64,000 bases of DNA. Origin: an uncultured Thermoleophilia bacterium (lineage in GTDB: Bacteria > Actinomycetota > Thermoleophilia > Gaiellales > Gaiellaceae). The DNA is taken from assembly GCA_963703435.1 (NCBI GenBank), contig CAVPEJ010000002.1, positions 1,179,328 to 1,243,327 of the forward strand, read 5' to 3'. The position numbers and the translations under genes were made by a program. Shown in pieces: positions 6,752-60,544 of the stretch; the stretch's first letter is position 1; each line of letters starts with the position of its first letter. The notes under the pieces are model-generated. The model worked only from the letters and a program-made list of their open reading frames with translations, made no database searches and was not told the DNA's origin.

Positions 6752-8035
6752 ATGACGGCAACCGTTCGCCGGCCCGGCGCGCGCGGCCCGATCTACGAGG
6801 GCTCGCGCATCCCGCGGCCGATCCCGACCGTCCTGCGGACGCGACCCGAGGTCAAGGCGACCGGCGACGTGATGACCGTCAACTTCGGGCCGAACCACCC
6901 GTCGACGCACGGCGTGCTGCGGCTGATCGTCGACCTCTACGGCGAGGACGTCACCGGCCTCGAGGCGGTCGTCGGCTACCTGCACACGGGCTTCGAGAAG
7001 AACATGGAAGCCAAGACGTGGTGGAAGTGCATCACCTATCCCGAGCGCATCGACTACGTCGCCTTCCAGAACAACGAGTACGTGTTCGTCGCCGCGGTGG
7101 AGAAGCTGCTCGACCTCGACGTGCCGCCGAAGGCGATCTGGATGCGGACGCTGCTCAACGAGCTGAACCGGATCCACTCGCATCTCGTCTGGATCGGGAC
7201 GTCGGCCCTCGAGCTCGGCGCGATCTCGATGTTCTGGTACGCGTTCCGCGAGCGCGAGCTGGTGCTCGACCTCTCGGAGCTCGTCACCGGCTACCGCATG
7301 CACACCCGCTACTTCCAGGTCGGCGGCCTCGCGGAGGACATCCCCCGCGGCTTCTACCCGCAGGCCCGCTCGTTCTGCGAATGGATGCCGAAGGCGATCG
7401 ACGACTACGAGACGCTGCTCACGCGCAACAAGATCTGGCTCGAGCGGACCGAGGGCATCGGCCTGCTGTCGGCGGACGACGCGATCGCGCTCGGGCAGTC
7501 CGGCCCCGTGCTGCGCGCGTCCGGCGTCGACTGGGACATCCGCCGTGACGAGCCCTACCTCGCCTACCACCAGGTCGACTTCCGTGTCCCGGTTTTTCCC
7601 GAGGGCGACGTGTACGCCCGCTACCGCGTGCACATCGAGGAGATGCGCCAGTCGGTCCGCATCATCGAGCAGTGTCTCGACCGGCTCGAGCGGATGGAGG
7701 GCGAGCCGTGGATCGCCGACGACCGCAAGGTGGTGCTGCCGCCCCGGCACGAGCTCCACACGTCGATGGAGTCGCTGATCCATCACTTCAAGATCGTCAC
7801 CGAGGGCTTCCGCGTCCCCGAGGGCGAGGTCTACGTCGCGATCGAGTCGCCGCGCGGCGAGCTCGGGTGCTACGTCTGCTCGGCCGGAGGGCCGAAGCCG
7901 TGGCGCGTGAAGTTCCGCGCTCCGTCCTTCGTGGCGCTCCAGGCGACCGCGACGTGCGTGACGGACGCGCTGATCGCCGACATGATCGCGATCGTCGGCT
8001 CGCTCGACACCGTCATGGGCGAGGTCGACCGGTGA
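6752..8035 (+). CDS. nuoD: NADH-quinone oxidoreductase subunit D
   Basis: Trimmed to ATG 6752, preceded by GGGGAGGAG. Contains NFGPNHPSTHGVLRL and the C-terminal LDTVMGEVDR. Confidence 0.93.
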   Translation: MTATVRRPGARGPIYEGSRIPRPIPTVLRTRPEVKATGDVMTVNFGPNHPSTHGVLRLIVDLYGEDVTGLEAVVGYLHTGFEKNMEAKTWWKCITYPERIDYVAFQNNEYVFVAAVEKLLDLDVPPKAIWMRTLLNELNRIHSHLVWIGTSALELGAISMFWYAFRERELVLDLSELVTGYRMHTRYFQVGGLAEDIPRGFYPQARSFCEWMPKAIDDYETLLTRNKIWLERTEGIGLLSADDAIALGQSGPVLRASGVDWDIRRDEPYLAYHQVDFRVPVFPEGDVYARYRVHIEEMRQSVRIIEQCLDRLERMEGEPWIADDRKVVLPPRHELHTSMESLIHHFKIVTEGFRVPEGEVYVAIESPRGELGCYVCSAGGPKPWRVKFRAPSFVALQATATCVTDALIADMIAIVGSLDTVMGEVDR

Positions 8036-9805: not shown

Positions 9806-11883
9806 CGAGCCCGTCTCCCGACGTCGTCACTGTCACGATCGACGAGCGTCAGGTGCAGGTGCCGAAGGGGACCGGCCTCGTGGAGACCGCGCAGAGCGCC
9901 GGCATCGAGATTCCCATCTTCTGCTACGAGCCGCGGCTCGGTCCGGCCGTCGGCGCCTGCCGGATGTGCCTCGTCGAGGTCGAGGGCATGCCGAAGCTCC
10001 AGGCCGGGTGCACGCTCACCGCGCAGGACGGGATGGTCGTGCGCACGGCGCGCTCGTCTCAGGTCGCAGCGGAGGGCCAGAACGCGACGCTCGAGTTCAT
10101 CCTCGTCAATCACCCGCTCGACTGCCCGGTGTGCGACAAGGGCGGCGAGTGCCCGCTGCAGGATCTGACGTTCCGCTACGGGCCTGGTTCGACGCGCATG
10201 ATTTTCCCGAAGCGCACCTTCGAGAAGCCGATCCCGATCTCGCCGCTGATCGCGCTCGACCGCGAGCGGTGCATCCTCTGTTACCGCTGCACGCGCTTCA
10301 GCGAGCAGGTCGCCGAGGACGGCCAGCTCGTGGCGGTCAACCGAGGCTCGCAGTCGCTGATCGCGACGTTCGAGGACGAGCCATACCGCGGTCACTTCTC
10401 CGGCAACGTCACGGAGATCTGCCCGGTCGGCGCGCTCACCTCGACGCAGTACCGGTTCGAGGCGCGCCCGTGGGAGATCCAGAACGTCCCGACCGTCTGC
10501 GGACTGTGCCCCGTCGGCTGCAACATCACGGCGACCACCCGCGAGGGCAAGGTCAAGCGGATCCTGTCGCGGATCCATCCCGAGATCGACGAGGGCTGGC
10601 TCTGCGACAAGGGGCGGTTCGCCTACGAGCACCTGCAGGCCGACGACCGGATCACGACGCCCCTGCGCAAGACCGGGCCGCGTCGCTTCGAAGCGGTGTC
10701 GTGGGACGACGCCCTCGATGCCGTCGAACGGATGCTCCGCGACGCCGGCCCCTCGACGGTGACGGCACTCTCGGGCGGCGAGTCGGTCGAGGAGGCCTAC
10801 GGTCTCGCGAAGCTGCTCCGCCGGGGGCTCGGCGCGCACACTGCGCTGCTCCCCGAGACGGTTCCCGACGACCTCGACGCCACCCGCGCGCCGCTTTCGG
10901 CGCTGCGCGACGCGAAGACGATCGCGGTCCGGAGCGACACACCCGTGGTCGAACGCGCGCCGGTGGTCGACCTCTGGCTGAAGGCAGCGCGGCGCCGTGG
11001 TGCGAGGATCACCTACGGCGAGCCGGGCGACGCCGACGCCGTCGTCACCGACGATCCTGCACAGGCCGGCGGCGCACCGAACGTCTACTACTTGCCGCTC
11101 ACGCCGAACGGCCGCGGCGTCGCCGACGCCTGGAGCGCAGCCGCCGACGGCGAGCCGGTCGATGAGGAGCCGAAGCTGCTCGTCATCTCCGGCGACGAAG
11201 CGGCGCGGAATCCGGGCGTGCGTGCGCTCGCCGCCAAGACGCCCGTCGTGCTCGGGATCGGCATGTTCGAGGACAGCTTCCGCGGCTTCGTCGACTTCGT
11301 GCTGCCCGCGACGAGCTATCTGGAGCGCGACGGCACGACGGTGAACCTCGAGGGACGCCTGCAACGGCAGCGGCGCGCCGTCCTCGCGCCGGTCCCCGAC
11401 GTGCTCGCGTGGCTGGCCAAGCTCGCGAGCCGGTTCGGCGTCGAGCTCTCGCCGCACGCGCCGGTCGTCTTCGCCGAGGTTGCCGAGACCTGCTTCGGCG
11501 GCATCACGCTCGCCGACGTGGGCGAACGCGCCATGCTGCCGCCCCGGTCCGACCCGCCGCCCATCCGCAAAGCCGCGGCGAAGCGGCCCGCCGCGGCCGG
11601 CAAGGGCCTGCGTCTGGTCGCCTACCGTCCGCTCTTCTCGGGCGCGGCCGTCGAGCGCACCGCCGAGCTCGACTTCCAGCGGCCCGAGCCCGAGGTGTGG
11701 CTCTCGCCCCGCGACGCCCGTGCGCACAAGATCCGGGACGGCGCAGCCGTGACCGTCTCGTCGAACGGCACCTCCGTCGAGCTACGCGCCCGCGTCGCAC
11801 GCGACCTGGCGGCCGGCGCCGTGCGGATCGCCGAGGAGCACGCCGCCGATCTCCACGCGACCGTCGAGGTGAAGCCGCTATGA
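9802..11883 (+). CDS. nuoG: NADH-quinone oxidoreductase subunit G
   Basis: ATGA overlap with nuoF. Contains CYEPRLGPAVGACRMCLVEV, HPLDCPVCDKGGECPLQD and CILCYRCTRF. Length 693 aa. Confidence 0.93.
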   Translation: MTSPSPDVVTVTIDERQVQVPKGTGLVETAQSAGIEIPIFCYEPRLGPAVGACRMCLVEVEGMPKLQAGCTLTAQDGMVVRTARSSQVAAEGQNATLEFILVNHPLDCPVCDKGGECPLQDLTFRYGPGSTRMIFPKRTFEKPIPISPLIALDRERCILCYRCTRFSEQVAEDGQLVAVNRGSQSLIATFEDEPYRGHFSGNVTEICPVGALTSTQYRFEARPWEIQNVPTVCGLCPVGCNITATTREGKVKRILSRIHPEIDEGWLCDKGRFAYEHLQADDRITTPLRKTGPRRFEAVSWDDALDAVERMLRDAGPSTVTALSGGESVEEAYGLAKLLRRGLGAHTALLPETVPDDLDATRAPLSALRDAKTIAVRSDTPVVERAPVVDLWLKAARRRGARITYGEPGDADAVVTDDPAQAGGAPNVYYLPLTPNGRGVADAWSAAADGEPVDEEPKLLVISGDEAARNPGVRALAAKTPVVLGIGMFEDSFRGFVDFVLPATSYLERDGTTVNLEGRLQRQRRAVLAPVPDVLAWLAKLASRFGVELSPHAPVVFAEVAETCFGGITLADVGERAMLPPRSDPPPIRKAAAKRPAAAGKGLRLVAYRPLFSGAAVERTAELDFQRPEPEVWLSPRDARAHKIRDGAAVTVSSNGTSVELRARVARDLAAGAVRIAEEHAADLHATVEVKPL

Positions 11884-11953
11884 CCGCCCGGCGTAGGCTC
11901 GGCGGAGCCGCGACCCCGGCGGACGCGCCGGCTCTCCCGGCGCGGGAGCGGTC
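11881..11953 (+). repeat. degenerate + strand copy of the REP-like bipartite palindromic element, filling the nuoG-nuoH gap
   Basis: The layout is TGA, then a stem, then GTAGGCTCGGCGGA (11893-11906; 13/14 identical to the minus-strand copies). Next come hairpin CCGGCG-GACG-CGCCGG (11916-11931) and hairpin CTCCCG-GCG-CGGGAG (11934-11948), which contains the nuoH SD. Confidence 0.6.
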
Positions 11954-12952
11954 ATGAAGGAAGCCTGGTGGATCACGATTCCGAAGGCATTCGTCGTGAT
12001 CAACGTCGTGATGGTGTTCTTCGCGTTCACGACCTGGCTCGAGCGCAAGCTCCTCGGCCGGATGCAGCTGCGTTACGGCCCGAACCGCGCCGGCCCCAAG
12101 GGGCTGCTCGTGCCGATCGCCGACCTGCTGAAGCTGATCCGCAAGGAGGCGTTCTCGCCGAGCGCGGCCAAGGAGCCGCTCTACATCATCGCGCCGATCA
12201 TCTCGATGTTCACCGCGCTGGCCGCGTTCAGCGTCTTGCCGTTCGGCCAGGGCTGGACGGTGTGGGGGCACCGGATCGCAGGCGAGGTCGTCAACGTGCC
12301 GATCTCGCTGATCCTGGTGTTCGCGCTCGGCTCACTCGGGATCTACGGCTTCATCATCGGAGGCTGGGCCTCCGAGTCGAAGTACTCGATCCTCGGCTCG
12401 ATGCGCACCTGCGCGCAGCTCGTGTCGTACGAGGTCTCGCTCGCCCTGTCCGTGCTCGGTGTCGTGCTGATGGGGCAGTCGCTGAGCCTCGTCGACATCG
12501 TGAACAAACAGCAGGCGACGCTGTGGTTCTTCATCCCGCAGGCGGTCGGCCTCGCGGTGTTCCTGATCGGTGGCACCGCCGAGACTTCCCGCGCCCCCTT
12601 CGACCTGCCGGAGGCCGACACCGAGCTCGTCGCCGGCTACCACACGGAGTACTCCGGCATGCGCTGGGGCGTCTTCCAAGCCGCCGAGTACATCAACCTG
12701 CTCACGTTGTCGGGGCTCTGCGTGACGCTCTTCTTCGACGGCTACCACTTTCCGTGGGTGCACTCGCTCGACATCCTCGGGCCGATCTGGTTCGTGCTGA
12801 AGCTCTTCACGCTCGTCTGCATCTTCATCTGGCTGCGCGCCACCCAGCCGCGCCTTCGCTACGACCAGCTAATGCGCTTCGGCTGGAAGGTGCTCCTGCC
12901 CATCGCGACGCTGAATGCGCTGATCACCGCCGCGCTCGTGGTCGCTATCTAG
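11954..12952 (+). CDS. nuoH: NADH-quinone oxidoreductase subunit H
   Basis: Contains ERKLLGRMQLRYGPNRAGPKGLL. Polytopic membrane protein of 332 aa. Confidence 0.93.
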   Translation: MKEAWWITIPKAFVVINVVMVFFAFTTWLERKLLGRMQLRYGPNRAGPKGLLVPIADLLKLIRKEAFSPSAAKEPLYIIAPIISMFTALAAFSVLPFGQGWTVWGHRIAGEVVNVPISLILVFALGSLGIYGFIIGGWASESKYSILGSMRTCAQLVSYEVSLALSVLGVVLMGQSLSLVDIVNKQQATLWFFIPQAVGLAVFLIGGTAETSRAPFDLPEADTELVAGYHTEYSGMRWGVFQAAEYINLLTLSGLCVTLFFDGYHFPWVHSLDILGPIWFVLKLFTLVCIFIWLRATQPRLRYDQLMRFGWKVLLPIATLNALITAALVVAI

Positions 12953-14357: not shown

Positions 14358-16232
14358 GTGAACGTCGCCGCCTGGATCTGCCTTCTGCTGCCGCTCGCAT
14401 CGGCAACGGTGATCACGATCTCCGGCACTGCCATCTCACGGCGGACCGCGGGCTGGATCTCGACGACGACCACCTTCGGCGCGTTCGTCGCCGCCTGCGT
14501 CTGCTTCTTCGACCTGCTCGGCGAGCACGCGAGCGAGCGCACGCACGTCACGACGTCGTGGACGTGGCTCGCGGCGGGCCCGTATCACTTCGGCTTCTCC
14601 CTGCTCGTGGACCAGCTGAGCGTCCTGATGATGCTGATCGTCTCCGGCGTCGGAGGCCTGATCGTCGCCTACTCGCTCGGCTACATGGACGGCGAGGACG
14701 AAGAGCGGCGCTACTTCGCCTACATGTCGCTGTTCGTGTTCTCGATGCTGCTGCTCGTGCAGGGGGCGAACCTGCTGCTCCTGCTCGCGGGCTGGGGCAT
14801 GGTCGGCCTCTCGAGCTATCTGCTGATCGGCTTCCACCAGGACCGCCCGTCGGCGATCGCGGCCGCGAAGAAGGCGTTCGTAATGAACGCGTTCGGCGAC
14901 GCCACGTTCGCGCTCGCGCTGTTCCTGCTGATCCAGCACACGGGCTCGCTCGACTTCGGCCCGGTCTTCGCGGCAGCTCCGCACGGAGGGGCGATCGCCA
15001 ACCTGATCGCGCTCGGCCTGCTCGGCGGCGCGGTCGCGAAGAGCGCCCAGATCCCGCTGCACACCTGGCTGCCGGACGCGATGGAGGGCCCGACGCCGGT
15101 CAGCGCGCTCATTCACGCGGCCACGATGGTGACGGCGGGCGTGTATCTGATCGTGCGCTGTCACCCGCTCTTCGAGAACGCGTACGTCGTCGAGGACCTC
15201 GCGGCCGGGCTCGGCGCGGCGACCCTGCTGATGGCGGGCCTGATCGCGCTCGTGCAGGTCGACATCAAGCGCGTGATCGCCTACTCGACGATGTCGCAGA
15301 TCGGCTACATGTTCCTCGGCGCCGGGCTCGGTGCGTATCCGAACGCGATGTTCCATCTGCTGACGCACGCGTTCTTCAAGGCGCTCCTCTTCCTCGCCGC
15401 CGGCCTCGTGATCCACGCGGTCGCCGGAGAACAGGACATCCGCAGGCTCGCCGGAGTCGGAAAGCTGATGCCTCAGACCCGGGCGATGTTCGTCGCAGGC
15501 TCGCTCGCGCTCGTCGGCATCTTCCCGTTCGCCGGATTCTTCTCGAAGGACGCGATCCTCGCCGCCGCGCTGGATCGGGGCTGGTACGGGGTGGTGCTCT
15601 ACGTCGCCGGGATGATCGGCGCGCTGCTGACCGGTCTCTACACGTTCCGGCTCGTCTTCATCGTGTTCACCGGCGAGCCGTCCTCCTTCGTGCGCGAGCA
15701 CTACCACGCGCACCACGGCCAGGAAGGCCCGTTCTCGATGCGCGCGACGGTCGCCGTCCTCGCCGTCCTGTCGGCGGTCGCAGGCTTCTTGCAGTGGGCG
15801 CCGCTGTGGCATTTCCTCTCCACCTGGCTCGACCCGATCGAGCGCCCGCTCGCCGAGCCGACCCGCTGGCAGGAGTGGCTCTCCTCCGGGCTCGCGATCT
15901 CGCTCGGCCTCACCGGTGCGGCGATCGCGTGGTTGATCTACTCGGCGAAGCGCGTCCGGGCGCCGAAGGCGCTGACATTGTTCGAGCGGAAGTTCTACTG
16001 GGACGAGCTGTACGACCTGCTCTGGTACCGCAGCTCCGACCTGCTGGCGCGCGGTCTCGCCGCCTTCGTCGAGCGGCCGCTGATCGGCGGCTCGCTGGCA
16101 GCGCTCACCGGGGGACTCTCGCTCGGCGCGCGTGAGCTCAGCCGCGCCCAGACGGGCCTCGTCCGCTCCTACGCGCTCGCGCTCGCCGGCGGGCTCGCCG
16201 TCCTCGTCGTCGTCTTCCTCTCGGTGAGGTAA
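14358..16232 (+). CDS. nuoL: NADH-quinone oxidoreductase subunit L
   Basis: 624-aa antiporter-like subunit. Contains AKSAQIPLHTWLPDAMEGPTPVSALIHAATMV. Confidence 0.93.
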   Translation: MNVAAWICLLLPLASATVITISGTAISRRTAGWISTTTTFGAFVAACVCFFDLLGEHASERTHVTTSWTWLAAGPYHFGFSLLVDQLSVLMMLIVSGVGGLIVAYSLGYMDGEDEERRYFAYMSLFVFSMLLLVQGANLLLLLAGWGMVGLSSYLLIGFHQDRPSAIAAAKKAFVMNAFGDATFALALFLLIQHTGSLDFGPVFAAAPHGGAIANLIALGLLGGAVAKSAQIPLHTWLPDAMEGPTPVSALIHAATMVTAGVYLIVRCHPLFENAYVVEDLAAGLGAATLLMAGLIALVQVDIKRVIAYSTMSQIGYMFLGAGLGAYPNAMFHLLTHAFFKALLFLAAGLVIHAVAGEQDIRRLAGVGKLMPQTRAMFVAGSLALVGIFPFAGFFSKDAILAAALDRGWYGVVLYVAGMIGALLTGLYTFRLVFIVFTGEPSSFVREHYHAHHGQEGPFSMRATVAVLAVLSAVAGFLQWAPLWHFLSTWLDPIERPLAEPTRWQEWLSSGLAISLGLTGAAIAWLIYSAKRVRAPKALTLFERKFYWDELYDLLWYRSSDLLARGLAAFVERPLIGGSLAALTGGLSLGARELSRAQTGLVRSYALALAGGLAVLVVVFLSVR

Positions 16233-39569: not shown

Positions 39570-39642
39570 TGGCGAGGGCCGGACTTGAACCGGCGACACC
39601 ACGGTTTTCAGCCGTGTGCTCTACCAACTGAGCTACCTCGCC
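39570..39642 (-). tRNA. tRNA-Phe (anticodon GAA), CCA not encoded
   Basis: The manual cloverleaf fold has acceptor GGCGAGG/CCTCGCC and D arm GCTC-AGTTGGTA-GAGC. The anticodon arm is CACGG-CTGAAAA-CCGTG, the T arm is GCCGG-TTCAAGT-CCGGC, and the discriminator is A. Total 73 nt. Confidence 0.93.
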
Positions 39643-44076: not shown

Positions 44077-44903
44077 CGGCCGGCGGCGAGCCGGACGAGC
44101 TCGCCGGCGAGGGCGAGCGGGTCGGCGCCCGAGCGTCGCTCGAGCCACGCGCCGTCCTCGTCCGCGACGAGCGCCTGGAGGACGGTCCCGTCGTGGTGTG
44201 CGGCGACCGGTGCGAGGCAGCCTGCGCCGATCGCCGCGACACACGCGCGCTCGGGCTCGACCCGGCGGCGCGTCTCCGCGTGGTCCGCAGCGGCGACGAG
44301 CTCCTCCTCGCCGAGGCGCACCTGCAGCGCGAGTGCCCCCTGCGCAGCCTCCGGGAGCATTTGCTCCGGCTCGAGCCGCGCGCCGATCTCAGCCGAGAGC
44401 CCGAGGCGGTCGAGGCCGCACGCTGCGAGGACGATCGCGTCGAGACCGCGTTCGCGCAGCTTCCGGAGCCGCGTGTCGACGTTGCCCCGCAACGGCTCGA
44501 TCGACAACGTCGGCTCGGCCGCGAGCAGCTGGGCCCGCCGGCGCGCGGATGCGGTGCCGATGCGCATGCCCGGACGAACGGCATCGGCGCCGATCAGCGC
44601 GTCCCGCGGGTCGTCGCGCTCGAGATACGCACCAACGACCAGCCCGTCGACGTCGGTCGACGTCATGTCCTTGGCCGAGTGCACCGCCACGTCGATGCGC
44701 CCTGCAAGCAGCGCCTCCTCGAGCTCCTTCACGAACACCCCGCGCGCACCGATCTCGCCGAACGGCTTGCTGCGGTCGCGGTCGCCCGCCGTCGTGATCG
44801 GCACGAACGCCACGTCCACGCCCGGCCCGCGCAACAGGCTCGCCGCCTGCTCGGCCTGCGTGAGCGCGAGCCTAGAGCCGCGAGACCCGACGCGAACGAG
44901 CAC
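44073..44903 (-). CDS. hemC: porphobilinogen deaminase (hydroxymethylbilane synthase)
   Basis: Begins VRVGSRGSRLALTQA and contains TTAGDRD, VHSAKDM and LRGNVDTRLRKL. Confidence 0.9.
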   Translation of the reverse strand: MLVRVGSRGSRLALTQAEQAASLLRGPGVDVAFVPITTAGDRDRSKPFGEIGARGVFVKELEEALLAGRIDVAVHSAKDMTSTDVDGLVVGAYLERDDPRDALIGADAVRPGMRIGTASARRRAQLLAAEPTLSIEPLRGNVDTRLRKLRERGLDAIVLAACGLDRLGLSAEIGARLEPEQMLPEAAQGALALQVRLGEEELVAAADHAETRRRVEPERACVAAIGAGCLAPVAAHHDGTVLQALVADEDGAWLERRSGADPLALAGELVRLAAGR

Positions 44904-45030
44904 AGTTCGACCTCGCCGCCCTCGAGCTGCGGCCGCAGGCGAGCGGACCTCGCCGCACGCGCAGGAACGCCGACGGCGCCACCACGGGGAGCGGGCGCTC
45001 GATCCGGCGGGGCTCGTCCTCGCTGAGGCG

Positions 45031-45092
45031 CTCCGGCGCCGGCCAAGCCGGCACCTCCGCTTCTTCCTCGCCTCCGTCGAGCCTACGGCTCA
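45031..45092 (-). repeat. REP-like bipartite palindromic element, copy downstream of hemA
   Basis: On the minus strand: TGAGCC-GTAGGCTCGACGGA-GGC... (45070-45092, TGA being the hemA stop), followed by GGTGCCGGC-TTG-GCCGGCGCC (45035-45055). Confidence 0.75.
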
Positions 45093-46292
45093 TCGTTTCT
45101 CGTCCTCGAGGCCGAAGAGATGACGCACCGCGTCGGCGTACACGGCACCGTCGGCGCTGACCGCGGCCTCCTTCATGCGCACGGTCGGGAGATGCAGCAG
45201 CTTGTTCAGGATCTGCGCCGTCACCGACTCGAGCTTCGCGCGCTCATCGTCCGTCACCCGGCCGGCGAGCTTCGCCAGCTCTGCCGTCCTGATCTCCTCG
45301 GCCCTCGCACGCAGCGACGCGATCGCCGGTACGACGTCGAGCGAAGCACGCCACGAACGGAAGCGTTCGACCTCCTCGGCGGCGAGGGCCTCCGCCCGCT
45401 CCGCCTCGGCGCGGCGGCCGGCGAGCGTCTCGGCAACGACCGCTTCGAGGTCGTCGATGTCGTAGAGGAAACAACCATCGAGCTTCGCGAGCGCCGGATC
45501 GAGATCGCGCGGAACGGCGATGTCGATGAAGAAGAGCGGCCGCCGCCGCCGGTCGGGAAGGTCGGATGCGTGCACCACGAGCTCGGGCGCGCTCGTCGAC
45601 GACACGACCACGTCGACGTCCGACAGCGCCTCGCCCAGCCCGGCGAGCGACACGGCCGTTCCGCCGAAGCGGGCGGCCAGCCCCTGGCCCACCTCCTGCG
45701 AACGGTTGGCGACGTACGCGATCCGAGCACCGCGCGAGGCGAGGTTCGACGCAGCGAGCTCGCCGATGCGGCCCGCGCCGATCAGGAGCACACGCCGGCC
45801 GGTGAGGTCGCCGAAGACCTGCGCTGCCAGAGCGGCAGCCGCAGACGACACCGAGGCGGGGCTCTCGCCGATCGCGGTCTCGCTGCGGACGCGTTTGCCG
45901 AGCGCGAGCGCCTGGCGGAAGACGCGGTCGAGGAACGGGCCGGGCTCGACCGCCTCGAACGCCGTGCGGACCTGGCCGAGGATCTCGCCCTCGCCCGGCA
46001 CGAGCGAGTCGAGCCCGGCGGCGACGCGGAAGAGATGCAGTGCGGCCTCGTCGTCGTGGAGCCGGTACAGCACTCCGTCGAGCGATTCGCCGGCAAGGGC
46101 GGAGAGCGCGGACGCGGTCTGCTCTTCCTGCTCCGCGCCGAGGTACACCTCGGTCCGGTTGCAGGTCGAGAGGCACACGGCCTCGCCGAGCGTGCGCGCG
46201 AACGCCGCGGCAGCCTCGGGATCGAGCGCGACGCGCTCGCGCAGCTCGACCGGTGCCACGTGATGCGAGAGGCCGACCAGAGTCAGCGTCAT
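45090..46292 (-). CDS. hemA: glutamyl-tRNA reductase
   Basis: Trimmed to ATG 46292 (ATGA overlap). Begins LVGLSHHVAPVELRE and contains LSTCNRTEVY and LLIGAGRIGE. Confidence 0.9.
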   Translation of the reverse strand: MTLTLVGLSHHVAPVELRERVALDPEAAAAFARTLGEAVCLSTCNRTEVYLGAEQEEQTASALSALAGESLDGVLYRLHDDEAALHLFRVAAGLDSLVPGEGEILGQVRTAFEAVEPGPFLDRVFRQALALGKRVRSETAIGESPASVSSAAAALAAQVFGDLTGRRVLLIGAGRIGELAASNLASRGARIAYVANRSQEVGQGLAARFGGTAVSLAGLGEALSDVDVVVSSTSAPELVVHASDLPDRRRRPLFFIDIAVPRDLDPALAKLDGCFLYDIDDLEAVVAETLAGRRAEAERAEALAAEEVERFRSWRASLDVVPAIASLRARAEEIRTAELAKLAGRVTDDERAKLESVTAQILNKLLHLPTVRMKEAAVSADGAVYADAVRHLFGLEDEKR

Positions 46293-47050
46293 GCGAAGTG
46301 GCCTCCGGCCAGTGCGAGCCGCACGACGATCACGAGCGCGAAGCCACCCAGCGCGAGGTAGGCGGCCCGCGGCCCCGACGGCCGAAGGACGAGGAAGCCG
46401 CCGTAGACCCCCCACGTCGCGACTGTCAGCCACTCGAGCGCGTCGGTCGACCCGCCCTGCTGGCGGAGCCGCACGAAACCGGCGACGAGGCCCAGCGTGA
46501 GCAGCGGCAGCGAGACCACGATCGTCCGGCGCGTCAGCCGCTCCAGCAACTGGAGCGGCGGCAGGCGCAACCTCAGGATGTCGGAGGCCCGCCGCTTGAG
46601 CCGTCGCTCCTCCCACAGGTACAGCCCTGCAAGCGCGGCGGCGAGCATGAAGCCGGCGAACGCGGCGAGCACCAGGCCGACGTGCAGCACGAGGAAAAGG
46701 TTCGAATAGTGCGACTTGCCGCCGCTCGCAATCCCGCCGCCCAGGCGCGCGACCACGAAGAGCAGCGCGGCCGGGGGCATTACCGCCAGGCCGAGCAGCC
46801 GGAAGCGCGGCCGGCAACCCCAGATCAGGTACGCCCCGACGACGAACCACACGAACAGGTTCAGCGAGCCGGAGAAGCTCGACCAGGGAAACCCGTCCGA
46901 GCGCCCGGCCTGGACGGCGAGCAGCGCCGTCTGCGCGATCCAGCCGAGGCGGACGCCCCACGTCGCGAGCCGCGACGTGCGCACCGAGGCATACGCGACG
47001 GCGGCTTCGCCGTAGCCGATCAGCGCCGGCCAGAACAGGGCCTCAACCAT
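46289..47050 (-). CDS. cytochrome c assembly family membrane protein (HemX/CcsA-like, no Trp-rich motif seen)
   Basis: Trimmed to ATG 47050. About eight TM segments. It occupies the position immediately upstream of hemA, as in the Bacillus hemAXCD arrangement. Confidence 0.7.
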   Translation of the reverse strand: MVEALFWPALIGYGEAAVAYASVRTSRLATWGVRLGWIAQTALLAVQAGRSDGFPWSSFSGSLNLFVWFVVGAYLIWGCRPRFRLLGLAVMPPAALLFVVARLGGGIASGGKSHYSNLFLVLHVGLVLAAFAGFMLAAALAGLYLWEERRLKRRASDILRLRLPPLQLLERLTRRTIVVSLPLLTLGLVAGFVRLRQQGGSTDALEWLTVATWGVYGGFLVLRPSGPRAAYLALGGFALVIVVRLALAGGHFA

Positions 47051-47213
47051 GCCCACGCTCCGCAACCGGCCGCTTCTCCCGCGCAAGCTCGACCAGACGC
47101 GCCACCTCGCGCTGCAGGCGTTGCAGCTTCGACGCGATGATCACCACGTACGCCAGCACCGCGACGAACACGACGAGATAAGCGGCGGCCGTGTATTTCT
47201 CAGAGGGCGTCAT
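47043..47213 (-). CDS. ccmD: CcmD-like small membrane protein (56 aa), not in the ORF track
   Basis: My manual translation is MTPSEKYTAAAYLVVFVAVLAYVVIIASKLQRLQREVARLVELAREKRPVAERGHG. It has one TM segment followed by a basic amphipathic tail. It lies between ccmC and the hemX-like gene, and its stop overlaps the next ATG by 8 nt. Confidence 0.7.
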   Translation of the reverse strand: MTPSEKYTAAAYLVVFVAVLAYVVIIASKLQRLQREVARLVELAREKRPVAERGHG

Positions 47214-47283
47214 CTTTCCCGCTCCGGAGCCGGCAAAGCCGGCACCTTCGCTCCTGGTGAGCCTCCGTCGAGCCTACGGCTCA
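47214..47283 (-). repeat. REP-like bipartite palindromic element, copy filling the ccmC-ccmD gap
   Basis: On the minus strand: TGAGCC-GTAGGCTCGACGGA-GGCTCA (47258-47283, TGA being the ccmC stop), then GGTGCCGGC-TTT-GCCGGCTCC (47226-47246), then GGAGCGGGAAAG directly before the ccmD ATG. Confidence 0.8.
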
Positions 47284-47964
47284 CGTCAACAGCTCCCGCA
47301 ACTCGCGCAGCGACGCGTCCAGCCGCTTGCCCGCAAGCTCGATCGAGTACAGGGTCGCGAACAGCCCCAGCATGGCGGCCAGGCAGACGCAGAAGGTGAA
47401 GAACTGGGAGTCGGTCATCTGCGGGCCGTGCGAGGTGAACACGACCGGGTGGATGAAGTTGTGCGAGAGCCGGATCGCGAGGAACGAGACCGGGATCAAC
47501 ACGACGCCGAACAGTGCGTAGACGGCGCACATGTTGGCCCGCGCCGGGCCCGGCTCGACCGAGTAGCGGAGCATGAAGTAGGCGCAGTAGAACAGGAAGA
47601 GGACGAGGAAGAGCACAAGCTGGTCCTCACCCCAGGACCACCAGACCCCCCAGGAGATCCGCGCCCAGATCGACCCGGTCGCGAGCGTCAGCGCACCGAA
47701 GATCACGCCCTGGTGGATGGCGACGTAGCTCTCCAGGTCAGCCTGCGGCTCGCGCTTCCAGAGGTGCCGGAGCGCCTTCCAGGCCCCCCAGGCGAAACAC
47801 GCATACGAGGTCAGGGCGAGCGGCACGTGGAAGTAGAAGATCCGCTGCGACAGGCCCTGATTGGCGTCGGTCGGCGCGTAGAAGAACGCCAGCGAGACGG
47901 CGGCCGCAAACAGCAGCGTGCAGACACCCGCGAGCAGCGGGAGCCTCGAGGAGAGTGCTCTCAC
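47281..47964 (-). CDS. ccmC: heme exporter protein C
   Basis: Contains RIFYFHVP, the Trp-rich motif WGVWWSWGED and NFIHP. I chose GTG 47964 (start uncertain by about 10 codons). Confidence 0.85.
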   Translation of the reverse strand: MRALSSRLPLLAGVCTLLFAAAVSLAFFYAPTDANQGLSQRIFYFHVPLALTSYACFAWGAWKALRHLWKREPQADLESYVAIHQGVIFGALTLATGSIWARISWGVWWSWGEDQLVLFLVLFLFYCAYFMLRYSVEPGPARANMCAVYALFGVVLIPVSFLAIRLSHNFIHPVVFTSHGPQMTDSQFFTFCVCLAAMLGLFATLYSIELAGKRLDASLRELRELLT

Positions 47965-58299: not shown

Positions 58300-59709
58300 T
58301 CAGACAGGTTCGAGCGTGCGGTCCGGCGCCTCCGCGCTCAACACCAGGGTGAACAGCGTCCAGCCGTTCTGCGAGTCGAGCTCGATCCGGCCGCCCATCA
58401 GCTCGGCCAGCTCCCGCGCGATCGCCAGGCCGAGGCCGCTACCGGACGCACGCGCGCCGTCGAGGCGGTAGAAGCGCTCGAACACCTGCTGCCAGGCGTC
58501 GCGGGGGATCCCCGGGCCGTTGTCGGCCACCGTGAGCATCGCCCGCCCGCCGTCCCGCGCCGTCGAGATGCGCACCGTGCTCCCCGGCGGCGTGTGCAGC
58601 AACGCGTTCTCGGCGAGGATGCGGGCGATCTGGAGCACGCGGGCGAAGTCCCCGCGGGCAAGCACCGCGTCATCTGCGACAGCTTCGAGCGTCTGGCCGA
58701 GCAACGCGGCGCGCGGCGCCAGCTCGCGGGACACGCCGGCCGCCAACTCGGAGAGGTCGACGGGCTCTTGGTCGACGGCCAGTCGCCCGGCGTCGAGTCG
58801 CGAGAGGTCGAGCAGGTCGGTGGCGAGCCGGCCGAGCCGCTCGACCTGCTCGCGCATCTCGCCGATGAACTCGGCGCGCGTGCCCGCGTCCAGATCGGGG
58901 TCGTCCAGCAGCTCGAGGAAGCCTCCGAGCGAGAAGAGCGGCGTCCGCAGCTCGTGCGAGGCGTTGGCGATGAACTCGCCGCGTGCGCGGTCGAGGTGCG
59001 CGAGTCGCAGCCGCATCCGCTCGAACGCCCGCGCGAGCTGCCCGAGCTCGTCGGAGGCCGCATCCACCACCGGCCCCGCGAAGTTGCCCGCGGCGATCTG
59101 CTCGGCGGCGCCCTCGAGCCGCCGGATCCGCCGCGCGAACTGCTGCGCGCCTGCGTAGCCCAGCAGGAGCGCAAAGCCGAGGGCGATCCCGCCGGCGATG
59201 AACACGCGACGGCGGACGACGGACACGGTGCGAAGCTGATCGTGGAGCGACGCCGACAGCAGCACGACCGACCCGCTGATCGGGTAACCGACCTCGGCGT
59301 AGCGCTGCCCGCCGCGGGCAACCGTCCCGCGCGCGAGCGTCTGCCGCTCGATCGCCTGGAACGCGACCGGGTCGTTCTGGACGTCGCTCGAGTCCCCCTC
59401 CGACTCGGAGTCGGCAACCGGCTGGAGCAGTGCCGGCACGGCGTTCTGCAGGTCGTAGACGATGATCCGGGCGTTGACGGCCGACGCCCACTCGTCCGCG
59501 AAGGCCTGCTTGCTGTACTCGACCTGGTCGGCCGGGTAGTTGGGGATCGCGACCGTCCGCATCGCGGACTCGAGCCCCCGCAGCTCGCTGTTCTCGAGCG
59601 AGCGCTGGTACGACGGGACGACGATCAGGTAGACGATCGCGAGCACACCGGCAACGACCGCCAGCAGCGCCAGCGCCAGCCTGCCGCCGACGCCACGGAA
59701 GCTGCTCAT
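58300..59709 (-). CDS. two-component sensor histidine kinase (TM-sensor-TM-HAMP-HisKA-HATPase)
   Basis: Trimmed to ATG 59709 (MSSFRGVGGRLALALLAVV). H-box NASHELRTPL, N-box NALLHT, and G-boxes DNGPGI and GSGLGLAI. Confidence 0.9.
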   Translation of the reverse strand: MSSFRGVGGRLALALLAVVAGVLAIVYLIVVPSYQRSLENSELRGLESAMRTVAIPNYPADQVEYSKQAFADEWASAVNARIIVYDLQNAVPALLQPVADSESEGDSSDVQNDPVAFQAIERQTLARGTVARGGQRYAEVGYPISGSVVLLSASLHDQLRTVSVVRRRVFIAGGIALGFALLLGYAGAQQFARRIRRLEGAAEQIAAGNFAGPVVDAASDELGQLARAFERMRLRLAHLDRARGEFIANASHELRTPLFSLGGFLELLDDPDLDAGTRAEFIGEMREQVERLGRLATDLLDLSRLDAGRLAVDQEPVDLSELAAGVSRELAPRAALLGQTLEAVADDAVLARGDFARVLQIARILAENALLHTPPGSTVRISTARDGGRAMLTVADNGPGIPRDAWQQVFERFYRLDGARASGSGLGLAIARELAELMGGRIELDSQNGWTLFTLVLSAEAPDRTLEPV

Positions 59710-59842
59710 TCCCGCTCCGGCGCCGGCCAAGCCGGCACCTTCGCTCCTTCTCCGCTGCAGCGCCGGCCAAGCCGGCGCTTCCGCTCGCTGCCGGCTCCGT
59801 CGAGCCTACGCCGGCGTGAGCCTCCGTCGAGCCTACGGCTCA
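59710..59842 (-). repeat. tandem dimer of the REP-like bipartite palindromic element, filling the RR-HK gap
   Basis: X modules are at 59817-59842 (TGAGCC...GGCTCA) and 59790-59815 (GCCGGC...GCCGGC), both around GTAGGCTCGACGGA. Y modules are at 59759-59779 and 59719-59739. Confidence 0.85.
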
Positions 59843-60544
59843 TCGATCTCTGAAGCGGTACCCGACGCCGCGCACGGTGAGGATGTACTCCGGTGTGCGC
59901 GGCTCGGCCTCGAGCTTCTCCCGCAGGTGGCGGACGTGGACGTCGATCGTCCGTGGGTCGCGGTAGTCGGCGCTCTTCCAGAGCGCCTCGAGCAGCATCC
60001 TGCGGCTGAACACGCGGCCGGGCTGGGCGGCGAGGGCGCGGAGGAGCTCGAACTCGACGTAGGTCAGCTGGACGGGCTCACCGCGCACCTCGACGGCGCG
60101 GCGCGGCACGTCGATCACGAGACCCTCGTGCTCGATCCGCTCGTCGTCACCGTCGTCCGGGGCGTGAGGGGCACGGGCGCGGCGCAGCAGCGCCCGCACG
60201 CGCGACCGGAACTCGCGGATCGAGAACGGCTTGGTGATGTAGTCGTCGGCTCCGAGCTCGAGCCCGATCACCTTGTCCAGCTCGTCGTCCCGCGCGGTCA
60301 GCATGATGATCGGCACCGTGCTCTTCGCACGCAGCCGCTTGCAGACCTCGAGCCCGTCGAGCCGCGGCAGCATGATGTCGAGGACGACCAGGTCGACCGG
60401 CTGGGCGTCGAACTTGTGCAGCGCCTCCTCGCCGTCGGCCGCCTGCACCACGTCGTAACCGTCGCGCTCCAGCGGGAAGGCGAGCACCTTGCGCACCGAG
60501 TCCTCGTCGTCGACGAGGAGGATCGTGGGTGAGGAGTCGGGCAT
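59840..60544 (-). CDS. OmpR/PhoB-family response regulator
   Basis: Trimmed to ATG 60544 (MPDSSPTILLVDDEDS). Contains DLVVLDIMLP, ITKPFS and a winged-helix C-terminus ending TVRGVGYRF. Confidence 0.92.
   Translation of the reverse strand: MPDSSPTILLVDDEDSVRKVLAFPLERDGYDVVQAADGEEALHKFDAQPVDLVVLDIMLPRLDGLEVCKRLRAKSTVPIIMLTARDDELDKVIGLELGADDYITKPFSIREFRSRVRALLRRARAPHAPDDGDDERIEHEGLVIDVPRRAVEVRGEPVQLTYVEFELLRALAAQPGRVFSRRMLLEALWKSADYRDPRTIDVHVRHLREKLEAEPRTPEYILTVRGVGYRFRDR

Follow-up and report, generated by a model that had tools for sequence, protein, structure and literature searches.

The genes of an OmpR-type response regulator (RR) and a histidine kinase (HK) in an uncultured Gaiellaceae bacterium (Actinomycetota; Thermoleophilia) are separated by a 130-nt spacer that is wholly repeat-derived, raising the question of what this repeat is and how it came to lie at the junction of two genes of one operon. 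The spacer is located at 59.7 kb of the window, by which we mean the whole stretch of 64,000 nt analysed here, and its features are listed below, with numbers prefixed by L denoting sampled loci from other genomes. We consider it probable that the spacer derives from a ~68-nt non-autonomous hairpin repeat, apparently mobile, that sits at operon stop/start overlaps and carries a coupled mini open reading frame (mini-ORF).

59840..60544, minus strand: OmpR-type response regulator, the upstream gene (Pfam Response_reg and Trans_reg_C).
59706..59843, minus strand: composite insert and coupled mini-ORF, delimited by reading the sequence and by the orthologous empty site CG-ATGAGC-ACG in L121 and L123-127.
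59817..59842, minus strand: X1 module of the outer unit, with arm TGAGCC (holding the RR stop), loop GTAGGCTCGACGGA at 59836-59823 and arm GGCTCA; partial covariance model (CM) match at 59822-59837.
59750..59815, minus strand: nested inner unit of 66 nt, comprising X2, linker, Y1 and tail CTGCAGCGGAG; full CM match at 59747-59821, 78.8 bits.
59710..59749, minus strand: 3' half of the outer unit, comprising linker AGGAGCGAA, Y2 GGTGCCGGC-TTG-GCCGGCGCC (59739-59719) and tail GGAGCGGGA; partial CM match at 59719-59746.
58300..59709, minus strand: histidine kinase, the downstream gene (Pfam HAMP, HisKA and HATPase_c).

The RR stop TGA occupies positions 59842-59840 and the HK ATG positions 59709-59707, with the two repeat units between them reading tGAGCC-GTAGGCTCGACGGA-GGCTCA-c-GCCGGC-GTAGGCTCGACGGA-GCCGGC-agcgagcgga in the 5' part and AGCGCCGGC-TTG-GCCGGCGCT-gcagcggagaaggagcgaa-GGTGCCGGC-TTG-GCCGGCGCC-ggagcggga-ATGA in the 3' part. 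That the spacer is made of repeat had been proposed in a sequence-only reading of this stretch, and is borne out, with the RR stop, the HK ATG and all modules lying where they had been placed; the sequence likewise confirms the closing arms of the two X copies, TGAGCC/GGCTCA and GCCGGC/GCCGGC, as well as the paired substitutions that distinguish the Y copies, and a pattern search confirms the GCCGGC-NNN-GCCGGC hairpins. The same reading took the two units for a tandem dimer, which has to be revised. The module order is X1-X2-Y1-Y2, and because tandem duplication cannot yield XXYY, the spacer represents a complete 66-nt unit nested in the linker of another unit. The X2 module of the inner unit consists of GCCGGC / GTAGGCTCGACGGA (59809-59796) / GCCGGC, and its Y1 module of AGCGCCGGC-TTG-GCCGGCGCT (59779-59759); the stems of X2 and Y1 differ from those of X1 and Y2, are mutually compensated, and together with the linker amount to 66 nt, with X1 and Y2 matching the single unit of the closest relatives, L120 and L140. 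The insertion point lies directly 5' of AAGGAGC in the outer linker, a motif that differs by a single base from the ATGAGC usually seen; in several copies [AG]TGAGC itself stands at this linker position. The linker of the first unit has thus received a second one, belonging to another subfamily. At the nuoG/nuoH junction of L078 the XXYY arrangement is met again, equal in total length, and the related form XXY recurs in L073 and L099.

The composite insert is also open from end to end. A mini-ORF of 45 codons (MSRRLDGGSRRRRLDGAGSERKRRLGRRCSGEGAKVPAWPAPERE) starts with an ATG (59843-59841) overlapping the RR TGA and ends with a TGA (59708-59706) overlapping the HK ATG, the distance from TGA to ATG being 133 nt (67+66), and the tail of the outer unit, GGAGCGGGA, provides a GGAG Shine-Dalgarno (SD) sequence 5 nt ahead of the HK ATG.

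The repeat is not confined to this locus. A scan of species-representative genomes with the pattern GTAGGCTCGRCGGA-N16-30-CCGGCNNNNCCGG, which requires the 14-mer of the X loop and the Y core, returned at least 119 loci, and the family-wide counts given below rest on the loci listed, of up to 8 kb each. Among the matches listed, all are labelled Gaiellaceae, Gaiellales, Thermoleophilia or, less precisely, Actinomycetes/Actinomycetota, and stem from metagenome-assembled genomes (MAGs), with the window being ~80% identical in nucleotide sequence and syntenic with several Gaiellaceae MAG loci of the family. No copies were found in a search of viral contigs and plasmids. Rfam, searched with the whole window at the gathering threshold and with the element at E<=10, gave nothing relevant on the element, a literature search for the 14-mer and for Gaiella repeats found no description of it, and a search for the term 'MIRU-like' returned only unrelated papers. 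Among the loci listed, this is a real and apparently undescribed repeat family of Gaiellales-type Actinomycetota, consistent with the sequence-only reading, which knew of no description of the element and had suggested a pattern search for the further copies now found in public genomes.

As a consensus, the unit has the form cATGAGC(C)-GTAGGCTCGACGGA-G(G)CTCA-cAAGGAGCGGAGG-YGCCGGC-TTT-GCCGGCRCC-GGAGCGGGcATGA, such that a canonical unit reads (N)TGA-arm / GTAGGCTCGACGGA / arm' - cAAGGAGCGGAGG - YGCCGGC-TTT-GCCGGCRCC - GGAGCGGGc-A(TGA). Single units make up 102 of the 126 arrays, with two units in the order XYXY in 9, three units in 2 and four units in 2, and several further arrays are of the form XXYY, XXY or XYY. 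The period of the arrays is 68 nt (ATGA to ATGA), or 66, 69 or 72 nt, keeping the frame continuous. Three or four SD-like motifs are present in the consensus unit: X has ACGGAGG, the linker AAGGAG and GCGGAGG, and the tail CCGGAGCGGG. The tail motif alone has the right distance to a start, and the remaining ones might serve to keep ribosomes on the relay of reading frames discussed below. A divergent variant, GCGC-GTAGGCTCGACGGA-GCGC...GTACCGGC-TCG-GCCGGTGC, occurs within a 113-nt tandem repeat at L052:1542-1727 (minus strand), without the usual GGAGCGGG tail and in a context that is not clearly sense-oriented.

The position of the element relative to its neighbouring genes is strongly patterned. 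Flanking genes are sense/sense in 79 arrays and antisense/antisense in 2; the former count is an underestimate, since downstream genes that are short, such as the one at the 47-kb locus of the window, are wrongly assigned by the GC-frame classifier. In 68 of the 97 arrays with a sense upstream gene (~70%), that gene ends with a TGA 5-12 nt before GTAG, in the 5' arm, with the TAG of GTAG serving in 6 other arrays and the 3' TGA in about 10. Downstream, an in-frame start preceded by GGAG lies 13-14 nt past the Y arm in 49/103 arrays; NTGA is found at 63 of 74 downstream starts, and AGC follows as second codon at 38. The distance from TGA to start in flush single units is 67 nt in 20 cases, 70 nt in 5, 73 nt in 4 and 58 nt in 1, and equals 1 mod 3 in 30/35; it is 135 nt (67+68) in two-unit arrays, 271 or 274 nt in four-unit arrays, and 133, 100 or 109 nt in nested or partly duplicated forms, with both XXYY cases measuring 133 nt. 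An NTG overlaps the upstream TGA in all 45 flush arrays (ATGA 32, GTGA 12, TTGA 1), and an unbroken chain of mini-ORFs ending in a TGA over the downstream start is present in 38 of them, with some of the 7 exceptions still having a stop within a few nt of the start. Stops occur in all three frames of the unit, provided by the 5' TGA, the TAG of GTAG and the 3' TGA. A constraint on frame and length thus exists alongside the conservation of structure, and the view that the element conserves structure rather than a reading frame, as put forward in the sequence-only reading, gives way to one in which both are conserved, with a 45-codon coupled ORF at the target and the same frame family-wide.

The remaining copies in the window comprise three single units:

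47210..47284, minus strand: single unit between a cytochrome-c assembly gene (TGA 47283-47281) and a 56-aa CcmD-like ORF (ATG 47213); CM 88.4 bits.
45024..45093, minus strand: single unit that adds 66 nt behind the stop codon of hemA (TGA 45092-45090); CM 74.5 bits.
11880..11957, plus strand: diverged unit between nuoG (stop TGA 11881-11883) and nuoH (ATG 11954); CM 55 bits.

Within the window the 14-mer GTAGGCTCGACGGA is found without mismatch at four places, always on the minus strand (59823-59836, 59796-59809, 47264-47277 and 45073-45086), and once with a single mismatch on the plus strand (11893-11906), with six matches of up to two mismatches in the window against 1.05 expected (0/100 shuffles reach 6). 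The sixth, a two-mismatch match at 15442-15455 (plus strand; GCAGGCTCGCCGGA), was rejected as a copy, lying inside coding sequence without a stem or Y module, and is probably due to chance. The covariance model identifies full units at 47214-47289, 59747-59821 and 45023-45098 (minus strand) and 11881-11956 (plus strand), and beyond these four just one extra X and one extra Y, both at the target; the copies noted earlier at 47.2, 45.0 and 11.9 kb are thereby established as full units. All four loci are co-oriented with their host genes. In all three flush copies the ORF starts with an ATG or GTG overlapping the upstream TGA and ends with a TGA overlapping the downstream ATG, the mini-ORF running from GTG 47284 to TGA 47212-47210 at 47.2 kb and from ATG 11880 to TGA 11955-11957 at 11.9 kb. 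In the 45.0-kb unit the 3' ATGA is missing, and the frame continues from the unit into a small conserved ORF (44872-45093) that precedes hemC. The nuoG/nuoH junction is also occupied in L027 and L078. As plus- and minus-strand copies coexist in a window with monotonic cumulative GC skew, orientation tracks the operon and not the replication fork, a statement resting on four loci.

Two small ORFs next to these copies may be of separate interest. The ORF at 44872-45093 (minus strand), between hemA and hemC, overlaps the hemC start, is conserved in L087, starts at an ATGA overlap with hemA, and in the window has its N-terminus lengthened by 22 codons by the element; it is a candidate gene only. 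The 56-aa hydrophobic ORF (MTPSEKYTAAAYLVVFVAVLAYVVII...) at 47043-47213 (minus strand), following the Cytochrom_C_asm gene, resembles a CcmD-type small membrane protein and is without a Pfam match. The sole Rfam match in the window at the gathering threshold is a tRNA gene at 39570-39642 (minus strand).

Comparison of orthologous junctions with and without the element shows where it is gained or lost. A metagenome scan with the kinase sensor domain yielded about two dozen orthologous RR-HK loci among 33 matches. The junction is empty, with the regulator TGA overlapping the kinase ATG (CG-ATGAGC-ACG), in L121, L123-127, L132-135, L141 and L142; L130 has GTGA, and a few others are without overlap at the predicted start. 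One unit is present in L120 and L140, two (XYXY) in L122 and one of another subfamily in L128, which with the XXYY form of the window gives orthologues carrying 0, 1 or 2 units. The occupied L122 nests among empty relatives 91-92% identical to it, and gains, or precise losses, have accordingly taken place several times at the site. Elsewhere, the window is occupied where L087 is empty, both at the junction of the ccmC-like gene and the 56-aa ORF (ACG-TGA-CGCC, a GTGA overlap) and at the hemA junction (CGATGACGG; CG-ATGA-CGG), and reading of the sequences reveals the window to be empty where the element is present in L025 (TTGACTGA), L027 (GTGA), L032 (ATGA), L036/L067 (GTGA) and L087 (GTGA). 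The empty sites are stop/start overlaps in 8/8 orthologous comparisons, and a TGA borders the insert at either end, extended to ATGAGC if the native second codon is AGC. The idea that the left arm represents target DNA and the right arm a complementary guide was discarded, with only the TGA being native at the ccm and hemA sites, and the GCC having come with the element. Internally deleted remnants, apparently arising via recombination between short direct repeats within the unit, are seen at the RR/HK junction of L131 (1476-1510; GAGCGTAGGCT joined to TGCCGGAGCGGGAATAG) and in L032 around 7440-7470 (minus strand).

A minority of copies lies within proteins. One unit is inserted in frame in the PHP domain of a DnaE2-like DNA polymerase III alpha subunit in two species (L101:3574-6177, minus strand; L109:7284-8000, plus strand), encoding ~22 aa, S/TGVGSTEP..GAG.AG.GAG (frame VGSTEP..GAGFAGAGAG), and a protein of the S9 (prolyl-oligopeptidase) family contains an in-frame XYXY array, with a period of 66 nt, on the N-terminal side of its peptidase domain (L005:4306-6411, minus strand). 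Copies that have lost one stop form N-terminal extensions in L030, L090 and L067, and a C-terminal extension in L114; the extended protein of L030 looks, by eye, like a citrate synthase, and the epimerase-like protein of L090 has AAG in place of its own ATG. Two element frames are used across these contexts, SRRLDGG... and VGSTEP...GAGFAGAGAG.

The two hairpins of the unit are supported by base-pair counts over 140 distinct units. Changes on both sides are seen at all six pairs of the X stem, with pair 9-30 being CG in 46 units, GC in 41 and AU in 31, and pair 11-28 being GC in 82 and CG in 47. The cells of the X stem are paired in 94% of cases, compared with 25-52% when the partner column is slid, and none of 500 shuffles matches the observed covariation, so that the covariance model and covariation test suggested in the sequence-only reading come out in favour of a conserved structure. 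The orthologous intragenic copies of L101 and L109 provide a further compensatory change, their X stems reading AGTGGC/GCCAC and ACCGGC/GCCGG respectively. In the Y stem the outer pairs vary, with pair 53-69 mostly U.G or C-G. G.T pairs outnumber A.C pairs in the Y stem by 113 to 8, suggesting that the Y hairpin is specific to the sense strand, whereas the X stem shows no such asymmetry (16 vs 20). Copies found via the HK protein, and not via the DNA pattern, do show high conservation of the 14-mer loop.

We regard the family, its distribution, the covariation, the constraint on frame and length, the insertion polymorphism at overlaps, and the nested, tandem and in-frame intragenic copies as demonstrated. 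The explanation we favour for them is that of an apparently mobile translational relay. The element lies where an upstream TGA overlaps a downstream NTG, in the sense orientation, leaving a TGA on both sides. A ribosome ending the upstream gene could then re-initiate on the mini-ORF of 23 codons (24 with the stop), which spans from one NTGA to the next, and the end of the mini-ORF would hand the ribosome to the downstream gene via the GGAG SD sequence and the new start. One -4 overlap is in this way replaced by a relay of -4 overlaps, and insertion should consequently be nearly harmless; with a stop, a ribosome-binding site and a start all supplied by the repeat, translation of the operon should continue. 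Variants losing a stop give rise to the N- and C-terminal extensions or to in-frame protein insertions. The hairpins, and above all the 14-nt loop that stays invariant while its stem varies, may be recognition structures for a mobilising enzyme and/or be active in the mRNA, and would serve mobilisation as single-stranded DNA, mRNA function, or both.

Several points weigh against this explanation. No autonomous form, that is a solo X followed by a Y 0.1-3 kb further on, was present in the 1.03 Mb sampled, which contained only chance matches and deletion derivatives, and no transposase linked to the element was found in the loci sampled. No terminal inverted repeats were seen, the ends GCCGTAGGCTCG... 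and ...GGAGCGGGCA not being inverted repeats of one another. An exact deletion through recombination of the direct repeats at the borders could look like a gain, so that the polymorphisms may run in either direction. Counts such as 38/45 are non-independent trials, with the copies sharing descent, and the invariance of the 14-mer and Y core in the alignment (A1) is partly a product of ascertainment, the search pattern having demanded both. Fold z-scores of single units are modest (-1.4 to -3.0), for which reason covariation was used as the evidence of structure, and translation of the mini-ORF is a prediction from junction geometry.

A bolder form of the proposal, which we think unlikely, is that of a previously unrecognised class of hairpin-ended mobile element, aimed at NTGA by an enzyme reading the GUAGGCUCGACGGA loop on a variable stem, and forming a self-contained 'translational relay' cassette. 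Among known modes of transposition, a non-autonomous model of the IS200/IS605 type, in which a cognate Y1 transposase works on the subterminal hairpins and the insert lands 3' to a set tetra- or pentanucleotide, would be compatible with the hairpin geometry and with insertion adjacent to TGA. Palindrome-associated transposable elements (PATEs) derived from IS200/IS605 are the subject of PMC6006769. PATEs and the IS608-type elements, which transpose as single strands, are similar in having subterminal hairpins near each end, no terminal inverted repeats and insertion next to a short specific sequence, and strand asymmetry is seen in one hairpin; they differ in that for the Gaiellales element no cognate TnpA was found beside any copy, and in that it shows no X...gene...Y form in the sample, and follows in its orientation the operon and not the replichore. 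A miniature inverted-repeat transposable element derived from a DDE transposase was rejected for want of terminal inverted repeats, though a direct repeat of 3-6 nt (TGA, ATGAGC) flanks the inserts.

Work on repetitive extragenic palindromes (REPs) headed by GTAG, and on REPINs, with the REP-associated tyrosine transposase (RAYT), is reportedly due to Nunvar in 2010 and to Bertels and Rainey in 2011. The sequence-only reading had placed the element in this family, and the X module could in principle be a GTAG-type REP, with GTAG and GGCTC-GACG-GAGCC recognised and cut as single-stranded DNA by RAYT; we judge this improbable. A short palindrome does follow GTAG in about 60% of copies, and the element is without terminal inverted repeats. 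Known GTAG REPs likewise supply stops, tolerate G.T pairs and occur in replication and repair genes (PMC3733652), sharing with the Gaiellales element the position of GTAG near GC-rich palindromes, subfamilies with compensatory stem changes, G.T pairs hinting at function as a single strand, and occasional intragenic copies. However, GTAG REPs have stems of 6-13 bp (rarely 5 bp) with an unpaired terminal GTAG, mostly form dimers, joined head-to-head or tail-to-tail, and in many cases border RAYT genes (Di Nocera et al. 2013, PMC3733652), whereas here GTAG lies inside a 14-nt loop closed by a covarying stem of 5-6 bp, and not as an unpaired tag at the foot of a stem, and the inner palindrome following GTA is only 3-5 bp, with ~3 bp in a third of copies. 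Head-to-head and tail-to-tail pairs are absent from the 119 loci listed, multi-copy loci being all same-strand. The Gaiellales element is furthermore bipartite (X+Y), about 68 nt long, always in direct orientation, and placed at stop/start overlaps with an SD sequence, start and coupled ORF, in contrast to REPs, which lie downstream of genes or between convergent genes, and the GTAG REP survey makes no mention of Actinobacteria (PMC3733652). What stands of the original assignment is a dispersed structured repeat with a GTAG core and a compensatory stem; what is not supported, given GTAG in the loop and no inverted pairs, is the link to REP and RAYT. The sequence-only reading also overlooked the dominant feature of the element, its placement at stop/start overlaps in the direction of the operon together with a coupled mini-ORF.

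The transposase itself offers no better support. Gaiellales genomes do encode a Y1_Tnp protein named RayT by the Joint Genome Institute (JGI), and tblastn with E. coli RayT against 1.03 Mb identified one such gene (L114:4359-4808), with homologues so named by JGI in L154-L156 (around 4001), one of them labelled Gaiellaceae. The same tblastn search found no Y1_Tnp homologue in the window, in agreement with the earlier remark that no RAYT gene is present there. The RayT-like gene is flanked by prfA-prmC and an adjacent gene (a GNAT acetyltransferase in two loci) on one side, and by OsmC-DUF1385-L31 on the other. No element lies within 4 kb of it in L154-L156, and the sole copy in L114 is ~4 kb away and not flanking. 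The search proposed earlier, for a RAYT gene flanked by inverted copies, thus located a RayT-like gene that is single-copy, syntenic and not element-flanked in four genomes, with a different palindrome upstream, and association with RAYT was dropped as evidence for a REP. The upstream palindrome, ACATGTCCGGGGACTGTCCCCGGACATGTCC, is perfect, conserved and located ~100 nt from the RayT-like gene; it is similar to the 'TIRYT' repeats, GGGGWSAS (PMC3733652), and has no relation to the X/Y element.

About equally improbable is that the element is a host cis-regulatory RNA module spread by selection, with the loop acting as a protein or RNase site that tunes the relative expression of neighbouring cistrons, such as those of RR and HK. 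Such a role would suit several findings: the element always follows the sense strand of the operon, the Y hairpin tolerates G.U pairs on that strand, conservation of the loop is high among the copies recovered through the HK protein, and three species keep the element at nuoG/nuoH. Against this, the host operons are functionally unrelated (nuo, hem, ccm, the two-component system and many others), presence and absence differ between close relatives, no Rfam family is matched, and nested, tandem, internally deleted and in-enzyme copies represent the behaviour of a selfish repeat. A regulatory role and the favoured explanation may be compatible through exaptation. That the conserved frame encodes a functional micro-protein (SRRLDGG...AEVPALPAPERE) is scarcely credible. 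The frame is open and start/stop-coupled in most copies, but the element is read in two different frames depending on its context, the core varies no more at third-codon positions than elsewhere, paired substitutions track stems and not codons, and the peptide is of low complexity.

Compared with known repeats, the element appears to work like a mycobacterial interspersed repetitive unit (MIRU), with REP-like hairpins and copies within genes like those of the Rickettsia palindromic elements (RPEs), and by this comparison would be a member of none of these families. RPEs were reportedly found by Ogata et al. in 2000 to sit in frame in genes and to be translated as an extra peptide, and the two resemble each other as palindromic repeats able to lie in frame in coding genes; they differ in that intragenic copies are a minority here, with the intercistronic junction as the main niche, and in that lineages and sequences are unrelated. 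The MIRUs of Supply (1997) are said to be without obvious dyad symmetry, whereas the Gaiellales element has two strong covarying hairpins, another host order, and nested and intragenic copies. RPEs are also mentioned in PMC3733652. In a 2025 review (PMC12548453, citing Supply 1997), MIRUs are described as apparently mobile repeats that insert at start codons and carry an internal ORF coupled with -4 spacing. By that account, both repeats are short (40-100 bp), lie within operons at start codons, are co-oriented with the genes and have a coupled ORF with -4 (ATGA) spacing, and MIRUs too were first noticed in the spacer of a two-component system. Tandem arrays of variable copy number are common to both, and the Gaiellales element shares with MIRUs the intercistronic, co-oriented position and the ORF ends overlapping the flanking stop and start. 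Comparison with one 53-bp unit, MIRU292 (PMC7977185, Table 1), revealed no homology beyond the SD-like octamer AGGAGCGG, with 315/1000 shuffles scoring as well.

For genomics of the Gaiellales, the family has practical consequences. The annotation of MAGs is affected, in that gene callers will report small ORFs that are spurious, lengthen N-termini falsely and make enzymes such as DnaE2 look as if they carried insertions, and the arrays offer markers of the variable number tandem repeat type for an abundant, poorly cultured soil lineage. To our knowledge, there has never been a mechanistic account of the way in which MIRU-type repeats arrive at start codons, or of the tolerance shown to them in essential operons. 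The family described here provides a second, unrelated and much more informative example of the MIRU type, with clear borders, many occupied/empty pairs, nested insertions, compensatory subfamilies and a frame rule, and it defines testable requirements in the form of TGA-flanked insertion, a 68-nt relay and a recognition loop. Were the element to represent the unrecognised class outlined above, it would constitute an independent, structured counterpart of MIRUs, making MIRU homing experimentally tractable.

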